DNA from: a virus
Lineage: Duplodnaviria > Heunggongvirae > Uroviricota > Caudoviricetes
Direction: 5' to 3' (one strand)
IMG/VR virus record: IMGVR_UViG_2541047861_000004
Length of the DNA: 4,923 bases
Shown here: positions 1,090 through 4,828 of the stretch, piece after piece
How positions within the stretch are numbered: the first letter of the stretch is position 1
Layout of the letters: each line of letters starts with the position of its first letter
Position numbers and translations under genes: made by a program
Notes under the pieces: generated by a model
Told to the model about the DNA's origin: nothing
Databases searched by the model: none
The model's input: only the letters and a program-made list of their open reading frames with translations

Positions 1090-1473
1090 ATGCGTGATAT
1101 TCAGATGGTTCTTGAGCGTTGGGGTGCGTGGGCGGCTAATAATCATGAAGATGTGACCTGGTCGTCCATTGCCGCCGGTTTTAAGGGATTAATTCCTTCA
1201 AAAGTAAAATCTCGCCCGCAATGTTGTGACGATGACGCGATGATCATTTGCGGGTGCATGGCCCGTCTGAAAAAGAACAACAGCGATTTACACGATTTAT
1301 TAGTAGATTATTATGTATGTGGTATGACATTCATGTCACTGGCAAGTAAGCATTGCTGCTCGGATGGTTATATCGGGAAAAGGTTACAGAAGGCTGAGGG
1401 CATAATTGAAGGGATGTTAATGGCATTAGATATCCGGTTAGATATGGATATCGTTGCTAATAATTCTAATTGA
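1090..1473 (+). CDS. quuD: Q-family late-gene antiterminator (QuuD-like, 127 aa)
   Basis: Translation [130 protein letters not shown] at 1090 preferred over TTG at 1075 because GGAG (1079-1082) sits 7 nt upstream of it. Position between rusA and the lysis genes, plus the Cys-rich pattern, fits a Q antiterminator. Confidence 0.85.
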
Positions 1474-1494
1474 TATGCAATTGTTTACTAAAAG

Positions 1495-1524
1495 TTATTA
1501 AAAATGGGGCGTGGAAACGCCCCC
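1495..1524 (-). terminator. Intrinsic terminator for the porin transcript (minus strand)
   Basis: Minus-strand RNA reads GGGGCG-UUUCCA-CGCCCC followed by AUUUUUAAUAACUUUU (6-bp GC stem at 1506-1511/1518-1523, U-tract toward lower coordinates). On the plus strand the same hairpin is followed by CAAAAUAAAGGG, so it is unidirectional. Confidence 0.65.
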
Positions 1525-1661
1525 AAAATAAAGGGTAATATATAACAGAAGGTTTATATAGTAAGAAGCAAGGTAGTGCTTCTAAAGGAAGTGGCTTGAG
1601 GGCTCCACTTATATGTTGCGGAGGCAAAGCCTCCCGCAACATATCTTTTTCGTAAGTCAGA
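1498..1661 (-). ncRNA. ipeX: IpeX-like regulatory 3' UTR of the porin gene
   Basis: About 164 nt of untranslated sequence between the nmpC stop (1662-1664) and the minus-strand terminator. The inhibitor-of-porin-expression RNA IpeX was mapped to the untranslated region between the nmpC/lc stop and its terminator in DLP12 and PA-2. Assignment is by position and established knowledge, not sequence comparison. Confidence 0.5.
1611..1650 (+). terminator. Intrinsic terminator, plus strand, downstream of quuD (tR'-like candidate)
   Basis: atatgttgcggagg-caaag-cctcccgcaacatat forms a ~14-bp stem with one bulged C, followed by cttttt (1645-1650). On the minus strand the hairpin is followed by AAGUGGAG, so it is plus-strand specific. 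Confidence 0.6.
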
Positions 1662-2744
1662 TTAGAACTGATAAACCAGACCTACAGCGACGATGTCGTC
1701 GGTATCAATACCAGCTGTTTTGGTAAACTTACTATCGTCAATTAAGTTGATTTTGTAATCAACAAAAGTGGACATGTTTTTATTAAAGTAGTAAGTAGCA
1801 CCGACATCGACATACTTGACTAAGTCTCGGTCACCATGAACACCAAGGTCTTTACCTTTTGACTGAAGGTAAGCAACAGATGGACGCAGACCGAAGTCAA
1901 ACTGATATTGTGCTACTGCTTCAAAGTTTTGTGCTTTGTTTGCAATATGGTTATTACCAAAAACGGTCATATTCTGAGTTTCAGAATATGTGGTAGCCAG
2001 ATAGATATTGTTCGCATCATATTTCAGGCCTGCAGCCCATACTTCCGCATTTTTGCCGGAGGCATTGAATTTGCTCTTACCATAGGCGACCTGACCGTCA
2101 GTGCGATCTGATTTAGCATAGGTTGCACCCACGCCGAATCCTTCATACTCATAAGTAGTGGAGAAACCGAAACCATCACCATTGGCTTCAGTTACGTCAG
2201 TGCGGTCATTTTTACCCTGATACTGAGCAGCAAAGTTCAGGCCATCGACCAGACCAAAGAAGTCGTTGTTACGATAAGTTGCAACACCAGTAGTGCGACC
2301 AGTCATGAACACATCTGTTTGGGTCCAGGTATCACCACCGAATTCTGGCAGAACGTCAGTCCACGCACCGATGTCGTATGCTACACCGTAGTTACGGCCG
2401 TAATCGATTGAGCCGTAATCACCAAATTTCAGGCCTGCAAATGCAAGACGGGTTTTGTCTTTGGAAGAACCTTGAGATTCAGCACGGTTGCCTTTGAATT
2501 CATATTCCCACTGACCGAAACCAGTCAGTTGATCGTTGATTTGGGTTTCACCTTTGAAGCCAAGACGGGCATAAGTAGTATCACCATCATCTGCATCATT
2601 AGAGGAGAAGTAGTGCTTGGCATTAACTTTCCCGTATAGATCCAGCTTGTTACTGTCTTTATTATAAATTTCAGCTGCCTGAGCAGACATCGCCATCAGT
2701 ACTGATGCAGCTACAGCAGAAATTGCCACTGTTAATTTTTTCAT
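1662..2744 (-). CDS. nmpC: Outer membrane general porin of the NmpC/Lc/OmpC family, apparently intact (360-aa precursor)
   Basis: Translation from the internal Met gives signal peptide [23 protein letters not shown] then mature [17 protein letters not shown]...; motifs [25 protein letters not shown] and C-terminal GLVYQF align with OmpC as I recall it. The ATG at 2804 in the ORF track is rejected because it would place 20 residues ahead of the signal peptide. Confidence 0.92.
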
Positions 2745-2900
2745 TGTACGCCCTTTTTTTGAACTATTATTAAAAAATGATGTCACTGCGCGATAAATAT
2801 TCATCTAATCAATGTGATTATTTCAAGATGTAAGTTTTAGTTTCTCATTTAATTTGTGAAGTAGATCTCTATTTTTATCTGAACCTTTTCTATCTAATCC
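2745..2900 (-). promoter_or_regulatory. Porin gene promoter/5' control region with OmpR-box-like motif
   Basis: AT-rich. Minus-strand sequence corresponding to plus coordinates about 2808-2827, CTTACATCTTGAAATAATCA, resembles the OmpR site consensus as I recall it (TTTACATTTTGAAACATCTA), roughly 60-85 nt upstream of the ATG. No clean sigma-70 -35/-10 pair could be fixed by eye. Confidence 0.3.
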
Positions 2901-2955
2901 TATTCATGGCTCTTGTCTGAACAAAAATAAATCTATTAGCTAATTTATATTAATG

Positions 2956-2973
2956 GCACTTATTTATAAGTGC
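2956..2973. repeat. Perfect 8-bp inverted repeat with 2-bp spacer
   Basis: gcacttat-tt-ataagtgc, about 210 bp upstream of the porin start within the AT-rich intergenic region; candidate dimeric protein-binding site. Confidence 0.5.
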
Positions 2974-3112
2974 TCTATAATTCTTTAGCTTAATTTAAAC
3001 AAACTAAAAATAACATCGGAAATTATTAACTGGTTATTTGTTGAAGTTTTCTTATGCATTTGTGGTGGTGTTTTGAACACTCGGTGGCATTCTCACAAAT
3101 ATCATTTAGTAG

Positions 3113-3126
3113 TTTACGTACGTAAA
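3113..3126. repeat. Perfect 14-bp palindrome tttacgtacgtaaa
   Basis: Self-complementary over its full length, 45 bp upstream of the 3171 terminator hairpin and about 210 bp upstream of the holin start. Confidence 0.5.
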
Positions 3127-3170
3127 AAATTGGTTATGCTGTTAAGAGTGGTTACTTCGTCACACAGCTT

Positions 3171-3203
3171 AAACCCGCCGTCGAGCGGGTTTTTCCATTT
3201 TTT
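3171..3203 (+). terminator. Strong intrinsic terminator, plus strand, upstream of the lysis cassette
   Basis: aaacccgc-cgtcga-gcgggttt forms an 8-bp stem (3171-3178/3185-3192) followed by ttttccatttttt. On the minus strand the hairpin is followed by AAGCUG, so it is plus-strand specific. Confidence 0.7.
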
Positions 3204-3332
3204 GAGTCTCGATATTAGCTGATAACCCAATACCTGAGTTATTCACTGACTCCGAATCTGTTACGTTTCTGCCTTTATTGCGATACGTAGTATCCCCTTA
3301 ATTTACACCCGCTTTGTCTGCGAGGTGGGGTT

Positions 3333-3548
3333 ATGAAATCCATGGATAAGTTAACAACGGGTGTCGCCTATGGTACCTCAGCAGGTAGTGCCGGGTACTG
3401 GTTTTTACAGTTGCTCGATAAAGTCACGCCCTCACAGTGGGCGGCAATAGGTGTGCTGGGTAGCCTGGTATTTGGCCTGCTGACGTACCTGACAAACCTT
3501 TATTTCAAGATTAAAGAAGATAAGCGCAAGGCTGCGAGAGGTGAATAA
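3333..3548 (+). CDS. essD: Class II holin (phage 21 S-type pinholin, 71 aa) with dual-start motif
   Basis: Translation [71 protein letters not shown] closely matches S21 as I recall it. Met1-Lys-Ser-Met4 dual start, two transmembrane segments, charged C-terminus. RBS gaggtgggg at 3322-3330. Confidence 0.92.
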
Positions 3549-4045
3549 TGCCTCCATCATTACGAAAAGCCGTTGCTGCTGCTATTGGTGGCGGAGCAAT
3601 TGCTATAGCATCAGTGTTAATCACTGGCCCAAGTGGTAACGATGGTCTGGAAGGTGTCAGCTACATACCATACAAAGATATTGTTGGTGTATGGACTGTA
3701 TGTCACGGGCATACAGGAAAAGACATCATGCTCGGTAAAACGTATACCAAAGCAGAATGCAAAGCCCTCCTGAATAAAGACCTTGCCACGGTCGCCAGAC
3801 AAATTAACCCGTACATCAAAGTCGATATACCGGAAACAATGCGCGGCGCTCTTTACTCATTCGTTTACAACGTGGGTGCTGGCAATTTCAGAACATCGAC
3901 GCTTCTTCGCAAAATAAACCAGGGCGATATCAAAGGCGCATGTGATCAGCTACGTCGCTGGACATATGCTGGCGGTAAGCAATGGAAAGGTCTCATGACT
4001 CGTCGTGAGATTGAGCGTGAAATCTGTTTGTGGGGTCAGCAATGA
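3548..4045 (+). CDS. rrrD: SAR endolysin (phage 21 R-type lysozyme, 165 aa)
   Basis: N-terminal signal-anchor-release segment [20 protein letters not shown], then a lysozyme domain with E35, D44 and T50 at the positions I recall for the R21 catalytic triad. Start ATG overlaps the holin stop (taATG at 3546-3550). Confidence 0.93.
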
Positions 4046-4503
4046 ACAGAGTAACCGCGATTATCTCCGCTCTGGTTATCTGCATCATCGTCTGCCTGTC
4101 ATGGGCTGTTAATCATTACCGTGATAACGCCATTACCTACAAAGCCCAGCGCGACAAAAATGCCAGAGAACTGACGCTGGCGAACGCGGTAATTACTGAC
4201 ATACAGATGCGTCAGCGTGATGTTGCTGCGCTCGATGCAAAATACACGAAGGAGTTAGCTGATGCGAAAGCTGAAAATGATGCTCTGCGTGATGATGTTG
4301 CCGCTGGTCGTCGTCGGTTGCACATCAAAGCAGTCTGTCAGTCAGTGCGTGAAGCCACCACCGCCTCCGGCGTGGATAATGCAGCCTCCCCCCGACTGGC
4401 AGACACCGCTGAACGGGATTATTTCACCCTCAGAGAGAGGCTGATCACTATGCAAAAACAACTGGAAGGAACCCAGAAGTATATTAATGAGCAGTGCAGA
4501 TAG
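4042..4503 (+). CDS. rzpD: Rz i-spanin (153 aa)
   Basis: Translation [153 protein letters not shown] is near-identical to lambda Rz as I recall it. ATG at 4042 overlaps the endolysin stop (ATGA); the GTG at 4030 is rejected. Confidence 0.93.
4262..4444 (+). CDS. rzoD: Rz1 o-spanin lipoprotein (60 aa), embedded in the +1 frame of Rz
   Basis: Translation [60 protein letters not shown] has a lipobox (VVGC) and a proline-rich mature part, near-identical to lambda Rz1 as I recall it. AGGAG lies about 8 nt upstream. Confidence 0.88.
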
Positions 4504-4534: not shown

Positions 4535-4828
4535 TTATTGTGAGCAATACACACGCGCTTCCAGCGGAGTATAAATGCCTAAAGTAATAAAACCGAGCAA
4601 TCCATTTACGAATGTTTGCTGGGTTTCTGTTTTAACAACATTTTCTGCACCACCACAAATTTTTGCTGCATCGACAGTTTTCTTCTGCCCAATTCCCGAA
4701 ACGAAGAAATGATGGGTGATGGTTTCCTTTGGTGTTACTGCTGTAGGTTTGTTTCCAACAGTAAACGTCTGTTGAGCACATCCTGTAATAAGCATTGCCA
4801 GAGCGGCAGAAAACAACATTTTTTTCAT
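4535..4828 (-). CDS. borD: Bor lipoprotein (serum-resistance-associated, 97 aa)
   Basis: Translation from the internal Met: MKKMLFSAALAMLITGCAQQTFTVGNKPTAVTPKETITHHFFVSGIGQKKTVDAAKICGGAENVVKTETQQTFVNGLLGFITLGIYTPLEARVYCSQ, with lipobox LITGC, matching lambda Bor as I recall it. AGGA lies 8 nt upstream of this ATG; the longer ORF starting at 4876 is rejected. Confidence 0.9.
   Translation of the reverse strand: MKKMLFSAALAMLITGCAQQTFTVGNKPTAVTPKETITHHFFVSGIGQKKTVDAAKICGGAENVVKTETQQTFVNGLLGFITLGIYTPLEARVYCSQ

Follow-up and report, generated by a model that had tools for sequence, protein, structure and literature searches.

The window analysed here, a stretch of 4,923 nucleotides taken at its full length, has the arrangement of a lambdoid prophage of the DLP12/PA-2 type, and its segment 2745–3335 (591 bp), used as a query, matches with 100% identity a lambdoid prophage carried by E. 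coli UTI89 and by related ExPEC strains. At its left end, the 3′ end of an IS3-family transposase (1–197) adjoins a truncated remnant of a DUF1364/ybcO-like gene (region 1–485) upstream of rusA (505–867) and ylcG (864–1004), two genes placed from the RefSeq annotation of the UTI89 locus and the list of open reading frames. The Q antiterminator gene quuD (1090–1473, plus strand; RefSeq annotation of the identical UTI89 locus) encodes a protein of 127 amino acids. A porin gene of the ompC/nmpC/lc type occupies 1662–2744 on the minus strand, as assigned from RefSeq and from comparison with PA-2 and DLP12, and belongs to a minus-strand cassette (~1451–3112, junctions defined by alignment) that includes its 3′ terminators and its AT-rich promoter region. 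Further right, a plus-strand late leader (3204–3332) reaches the holin start, where the lysis cassette (3333–4503) opens with the holin gene essD (3333–3548) and continues on the same strand with the endolysin gene rrrD (3548–4045) and with rzpD (4042–4503), which contains rzoD (4262–4444). The minus-strand gene iss/bor (4535–4828) follows.

Two elements stand between the porin cassette and this late leader. The first is a perfect 14-bp palindrome, TTTACGTACGTAAA, at 3113–3126 (halves TTTACGT and ACGTAAA), present as a single copy in the window; the second, 45 bp further on, is the hairpin AAACCCGC/CGTCGA/GCGGGTTT at 3171–3192, which runs into TTCCATTTTTT up to 3203. The lysis genes essD, rrrD and rzpD/rzoD lie on the same strand as these elements and begin 130 bp past the T-tract, at the holin ATG (3333). 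A sequence-only reading of the window had located both elements and given the two distances correctly. It had also described an 8-bp GC stem, which is in fact made of five G-C and three A-T pairs (−12 kcal/mol), and had ranked the hairpin as the best terminator in the window, a place that goes to the stronger hairpin at 1611–1644 (−21.9 kcal/mol, followed by CTTTTTCG on the plus strand), whose bulge causes it to be missed by a simple scan. This latter hairpin could also stop plus-strand read-through out of Q. A minus-strand terminator is found at 1523–1506 between Q and the porin, and strong minus-strand 3′ ends are recorded by K-12 Term-seq at the positions homologous to both structures (574476 and 574367, the IpeX/nmpC end). 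When compared with shuffled sequences, TTTACGTACGTAAA was matched in just 3 of 200 even with two mismatches permitted, and the energy of the 3171–3192 hairpin is modestly unusual by itself (z of about −2.2 to −2.6). The strong evidence for the non-randomness of the palindrome and the hairpin comes from their conservation and not from the window alone.

Both elements are found in DLP12 of E. coli K-12 and in phage PA-2, which share the gene order of the window and are 90–99% identical to it in DNA, palindrome and hairpin included. The K-12 prophage differs by an IS5 in nmpC and by a 19-bp deletion in the leader (L003/L210, ~3211–3229), a segment that is present in the window and in PA-2. PA-2 (L002) differs by a G-to-T change at the equivalent of 3187, shared with about 11 viral loci, which turns the 3′ arm into GAGCTGG and weakens the hairpin from −11.5 to −5.3 kcal/mol. 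Promoter, dyad and terminator are absent from the annotation of both the DLP12 and the PA-2 records.

Judged by alignment, the region 3110–3203 forms one conserved module whose counterpart in Stx phages, to which it is homologous, comprises the late promoter pR′ and the first terminator after Q. A BLAST search of 3090–3335 against phage records returned 360 hits, about 286 of which, mostly Stx phages, cover only 3110–3194. In this segment, the window is 78–89% identical to the stretch that adjoins Q on its 3′ side in hundreds of Stx phages, VT2-Sakai and SC370 among them, and the records of these two annotate there a 'putative late promoter pR′', a 'putative Q-utilization' and a 'possible rho-independent terminator'. 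The homology extends from the palindrome through the first hairpin in phages of the 933W, VT2-Sakai/Sp5 and H-19B type, whose Q proteins have 144 amino acids. Common to these phages and the window are the −35 TTTACG, the 16-nt spacer, a −10 of the form TAnnnT, the core GWTAAGAGTGGTTAC and a CCCGC...GCGGG hairpin with its T-run. However, the module abuts the Q stop codon in Stx phages while it is found 1.67 kb off, behind the porin cassette, in the window, and the centre of the dyad is AT in the former and TA in the latter. The two also part downstream: in Stx phages, a second terminator and the region of the small RNA StxS precede tRNAs and stx, whereas the window passes straight into the holin leader. 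StxS is a 74-nt 3′ fragment of the Stx-phage pR′ transcript and lies at ~1420–1495 of the Stx-phage locus L005; no homologue of it is found in the window, the homology to Stx phages stopping at ~3194.

On the grounds of this homology, a late sigma-70 promoter is predicted at 3113–3140 of the plus strand, with the −35 TTTACG (3113–3118) and, after the 16-nt spacer, the −10 TATGCT (3135–3140), which aligns with the −10 TATCAT annotated for pR′ of VT2-Sakai and SC370. The pattern TAnnnT is retained in essentially all variants of the module. The palindrome thus covers the −35 together with the 5′ half of the spacer; it aligns with TTTACGATCGTAAA of the Stx-phage pR′, which is also a perfect palindrome and whose first six bases are the annotated −35. 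Directly 3′ of it on the plus strand comes an A-tract (3124–3130, the last three dyad bases and AAAT) at a position that is A/T-rich in nearly all module types. The −10 is followed by the conserved plus-strand core GTTAAGAGTGGTTAC (3141–3155), which would include the transcription start and probably a region of sigma-dependent pausing. By scanning viral contigs for GWTAAGAGTGGTTAC, we found a Q homologue upstream of the core in every one of the ~90 loci with enough upstream DNA; the core is identical among these viral loci, but it was itself the search pattern.

We infer that transcription starts near A3147, the position expected 7 nt past the −10. In E. coli Sakai, the pR′ start seen by dRNA-seq lies 258 nt upstream of a 3′ end mapped by Term-seq (PMC7547250). 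Counting back this length from the T-tract of the second terminator (L005 1489–1495) gives a start at L005 1232–1238, equivalent to window 3141–3147; the count rests on the RNA length and the T-tract position, as genome coordinates differ by ~142 bp from those of the paper. No other non-coding stretch is as conserved among Q clades and genera as G(T/A)TAAGAGTG (3141–3150), which straddles the inferred start and is kept also in loci found via Q alone. It resembles TAAGCT, annotated as the sigma-dependent pause element (SDPE) of phage 21, but would be too far upstream of the start to act in the same way. As to SDPE candidates in the window, TAAGAG (3143–3148) straddles the inferred start and TACTTC (3153–3158) is without the final T present in the TACATT of Stx phages, and past the inferred start the window shows no −10-like pause element that is convincing. 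A possible 5′ leader hairpin, GUGGU/GUCAC, may form at 3148–3163 of the plus strand (+2 to +17). Over 49 variants, 88% of its cells are paired, and one pair occurs as G-C, G-U or A-U; its covariation statistics are weak (22 and 31 of 500 shuffles). A search of Rfam gave no covariance-model match in 3100–3340 at E values up to 1, and nothing relevant in a scan of the whole window.

In 174 modules, which have 95 unique upstream regions, ten or more distinct palindromes (8–16 bp) are all centred on one position, 21 bp upstream of the core. They include TTTACGTACGTAAA, TTTACGATCGTAAA, GCGTACGC, GCGGTCCGC and TTCGTTACGAA, and further types are TGTTATAACA, TGGAATTCCA, TGTCATGACA and TGTAATTACA; by comparison, a palindrome with an arm of at least 4 placed anywhere in 26 nt is reached in only 14% of shuffles. 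When Q proteins are clustered at 30% distance, the clades map one to one onto the dyad types, however far Q is from the module. Members of one clade all carry an unchanged dyad even as flanks, spacer and −10 drift, and this constancy spans Xenorhabdus, Photorhabdus, Yersinia, Pantoea, Trabulsiella and Providencia, from which the loci were retrieved through Q and not through the DNA motif. Moreover, once the Q proteins are aligned to a profile, the dyad type can be told at 156 of 156 loci from the second helix of the helix-turn-helix (HTH) predicted in Q, in the region of residues ~78–103 of the window Q. The sequence-only reading had suggested looking for the palindrome in other lambdoid late regions, and it is indeed conserved in related prophages: among 120 exact occurrences in viral contigs, 107 stand in the module context and at least 4 more in diverged modules.

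[quoted passage not shown] The earlier proposal of an operator or a recombination site is in part borne out, in that the palindrome behaves like the recognition site of a protein; recombination finds no support beyond the mosaic junction that adjoins it. It is very improbable that the palindrome serves as the operator of another regulator, such as CRP or a porin regulator, marks a hot spot of recombination or insertion, or is a −35 that is symmetric by accident. Putative CRP sites are marked in the intergenic region of the PA-2 GenBank record, and the right junction of the porin insert falls within 4 bp of the palindrome. Yet the annotated CRP site maps to ~3148–3168, off the palindrome, which is present in porin-less phages as well and whose sequence follows the HTH of Q at all 156 loci; accidental symmetry is difficult to reconcile with the recurrence of one fixed centre in at least ten unrelated sequences. 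The CRP site itself (PA-2 record J02580, TGGTT-ACTTCG-TCACA) was rejected as a candidate: its left half has only 2 of 5 matches to TGTGA, and its TCACA half is not conserved, being CCACA or ACACA in other module types.

The dyad lies roughly where the QBEs of lambda and phage 21 are found. Phage 21 (Yin et al. 2019; OL657228) has a Q of the same family as that of the window (PF06530) and the same order and spacing of elements, with the −35, a Q site in the promoter, the −10, the start, a TAAG motif and a terminator; in detail, its QBE is in the spacer, the SDPE TAAGCT is annotated and the terminator ends near +49. An S21-type holin follows downstream in both. Nevertheless, the QBE of phage 21 consists of two 8-bp subsites (ATTGAGCA and AATGAGCA) in direct repeat at −27 to −12, whereas the clade-specific element of the window is a perfect inverted repeat located around −34 to −21. 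The dyad types have no conserved direct repeat in common, and the element differs in this from a QBE of the Q21 type. In Q21, the only structurally characterised relative, two protomers bind head-to-tail on the direct repeat (Yin et al. 2019). A Q protein of the 933W/QuuD subfamily that binds the dyad would presumably do so as a head-to-head pair. We propose, tentatively and with a little less than an even chance of being right, that Q proteins of this subfamily recognise a dyad-symmetric QBE placed over the −35 of pR′, with a specificity set by the second HTH helix. If so, their loading would differ both from that of the single protomer of Q-lambda and from that of the tandem protomers of Q21, and Q specificity could be read from a simple table of helices and half-sites.

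The Q protein of the window belongs to Pfam PF06530 (E value of 7e-54), is homologous to Q21 (PDB 6P18) and is 81% identical to Q of VT2-Sakai. Its similarity to Q21 is detected by hhalign with a probability of 97.8% over the N-terminal 83 residues; beginning with the first HTH helix the two proteins diverge, and that of the window has 35 residues fewer. Q21 carries a 17-residue loop (residues 105–121) within its DNA-binding motif, which the shorter protein of the window may lack. Among Q proteins, the HTH region varies more than does the N-terminal half, which binds RNA polymerase (mean column entropy of 1.65 versus 1.03). In the TTTACGnnCGTAAA group, CSDG is associated with a TA dyad centre and CSDT with AT, with one exception. 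A single-sequence AlphaFold model of Q was unusable (pLDDT of 43).

The second element of the module, the plus-strand hairpin and T-tract at 3171–3203 (~+25 to +57 from the inferred start), resembles an intrinsic terminator and would represent the first late terminator, tR′. The suggestion that it is a backbone terminator of the tR′ type agrees with its homology to the Stx-phage terminator after pR′ and with the position of tR′ in phage 21. In 91 of 122 unique modules, compared with 38 of 366 shuffles, the interval from ~+25 to +60 contains a hairpin that folds at −7 kcal/mol or lower, with 5 or more T in 8 positions after it. The hairpins of the modules comprise 59 distinct sequences, a pattern such as would be expected for an intrinsic terminator maintained by selection. 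Termination at 3171–3203 thus appears likely. Alternatively, the hairpin could be an element of pausing, RNA stability or processing, with the real tR′ located further downstream or absent, which we regard as unlikely. Several observations speak for this alternative: the U-tract is interrupted (UUUUUCCAUUUUUU), the stem of PA-2 is weakened to −5.3 kcal/mol, and the Sakai pR′ RNA of 258 nt, with its 3′ end defined by Term-seq, extends beyond the homologous hairpin (PMC7547250). Indeed, since this RNA ends at the second terminator, at least some polymerases must pass the first hairpin in uninduced Sakai Stx phages. Published K-12 data were consulted for the 3′ ends that the sequence-only reading had asked for, and the Term-seq tables contain no plus-strand 3′ end between nmpC and essD, a result that is neutral to slightly negative for termination given that an RNA of ~50 nt could be lost. 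Against a mere pausing or processing element, the GC-rich hairpin and T-run, kept in 75% of diverse modules under 59 different sequences, carry the signature of an intrinsic terminator rather than of one particular structure, a documented terminator of phage 21 is situated at the same position, and a scan of the window revealed no other plus-strand terminator-like site from 3203 to the holin.

The position of the module also bears on the history of the porin cassette. Alignment with the porin-less E. coli prophage L133 and with VT2-Sakai places the left junction of the insert at ~1451–1455, at about codon 120 of Q, and the right one at ~3109–3112, just 5′ of the palindrome. In L133, the identical dyad occurs 29 bp past the Q stop codon. 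An insertion of the porin moron within the late leader had been put forward as a possibility; it is not supported, because the pR′ homologue (3113–3147) lies downstream of the porin cassette and the L133 dyad comes right after Q where no porin is present. The alignments instead argue for an insertion between Q and pR′, with the porin outside the late operon and transcribed the opposite way, so that late transcription would not need to cross the porin gene. Q itself is upstream of the module on the same strand, non-adjacent in the window. In viral loci, the distance from Q to the core is either nil or short (adjacent, −1 to 39 bp) or 600–3000 bp, the window falling into the second class with 1668 bp. 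It is common for 600–3000 bp of inserted DNA to separate the dyad from the Q stop codon (loci L008–L209), and the inserts differ among phages; accessory genes thus seem to land preferentially in this gap.

A different layout can be imagined, in which pR′ would come right after Q (1474–1610), the late transcript would run antisense through the porin, 3171–3203 would be an old tR′ and the palindrome would be unrelated. Many lambdoid phages do have pR′ directly 3′ of Q, and a plus-strand hairpin with a T-tail is available at 1611–1644. In spite of this, such a layout has hardly any probability in our view. The homologue of the annotated or mapped pR′ of the closest Q relatives is at 3113–3147, no second copy of the core or the dyad exists near 1474–1610, and module and dyad are intact at 600–3000 bp from Q in dozens of loci. 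Furthermore, the K-12 hairpins equivalent to 1506–1644 correspond to minus-strand 3′ ends on the porin/IpeX side. It seems no more credible that the terminator at 3171–3203 acts as an insulator against read-through from upstream (from the early operon via Q or from promoters in the porin control region) rather than on pR′ transcripts. A plus-strand promoter-like site is located at 2953–2981, and any non-antiterminated polymerase coming from upstream would meet the hairpin too; the insulation of the lysis genes put forward in the sequence-only reading is thus a possible side effect. It is not what the conservation pattern indicates, since the hairpin accompanies the promoter module regardless of what precedes the two (the end of Q, a porin or other inserts), and the window contains fewer promoter-like sites than its shuffled versions do (5 versus 9.5).

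In lambda, the promoter of the pR′-qut-tR′ region (6S RNA) is constitutive and contains the Q site; polymerase pauses close to it and then meets a terminator that it passes only when modified by Q. The module of the window appears to follow the same logic, even though Q-lambda belongs to an unrelated family, its terminated RNA is 194 nt long and there is no sequence similarity. The element is of an ordinary and known kind, a Q-dependent late regulatory cassette, with the homologous pR′ region of Stx phages and the phage 21 cassette, alike in family and layout, as its nearest relatives. It is highly probable from the comparisons that 3110–3203 constitutes the Q-dependent switch of the late genes, with the dyad and the terminator as two of its parts. 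According to this model, the host sigma-70 RNA polymerase would initiate at pR′, around A3147, and in the absence of Q most polymerases would stop at the hairpin and U-tract of 3171–3203, ~50–57 nt downstream, leaving the holin, endolysin and spanin genes silent. Once produced from 1090–1473, Q would recognise the dyad in the −35/spacer region and load onto the polymerase paused just past the start. The polymerase so modified would read through the terminator into essD-rrrD-rzpD/rzoD and later genes. As for the porin cassette, inserted between Q and the Q target and oppositely transcribed, it could be expressed in the lysogen.

In this organisation, a standard Q switch governs the lysis genes of the window, and the porin, which is a gene of lysogenic conversion, stands outside the late operon, which would explain how the porin can be expressed without lysis. 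The comparison designates the gap between Q and its target as a frequent landing place for accessory genes. It also predicts, in a form open to testing, which DNA is recognised by a large subfamily of Q proteins, including the Q of Stx phages, which switches on Shiga toxin 2, along with a table linking variants of the recognition helix to variants of the half-site. In the literature searched, whose coverage is incomplete, we found neither a published binding element for the 933W/QuuD subfamily nor a description of an inverted-repeat Q site, which is weak evidence of novelty; a dyad-symmetric and clade-specific Q site is possibly the one new point of this work.

Finally, the region that the switch would control has a mosaic structure of its own. 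The late leader, from the terminator to the holin ribosome-binding site (3204–3327), is ~73% identical to 2590–2714 of the Shigella phage SfII (L004), where it precedes a different holin (class I). Since the leader homology is shared upstream of different holins, a mosaic joint is placed at the holin start codon. This start is a dual one of the phage 21 type (3333–3344, Met1-Lys-Ser-Met4), giving the S71 antiholin and the S68 holin, and is annotated likewise in phages 21 and 434B.
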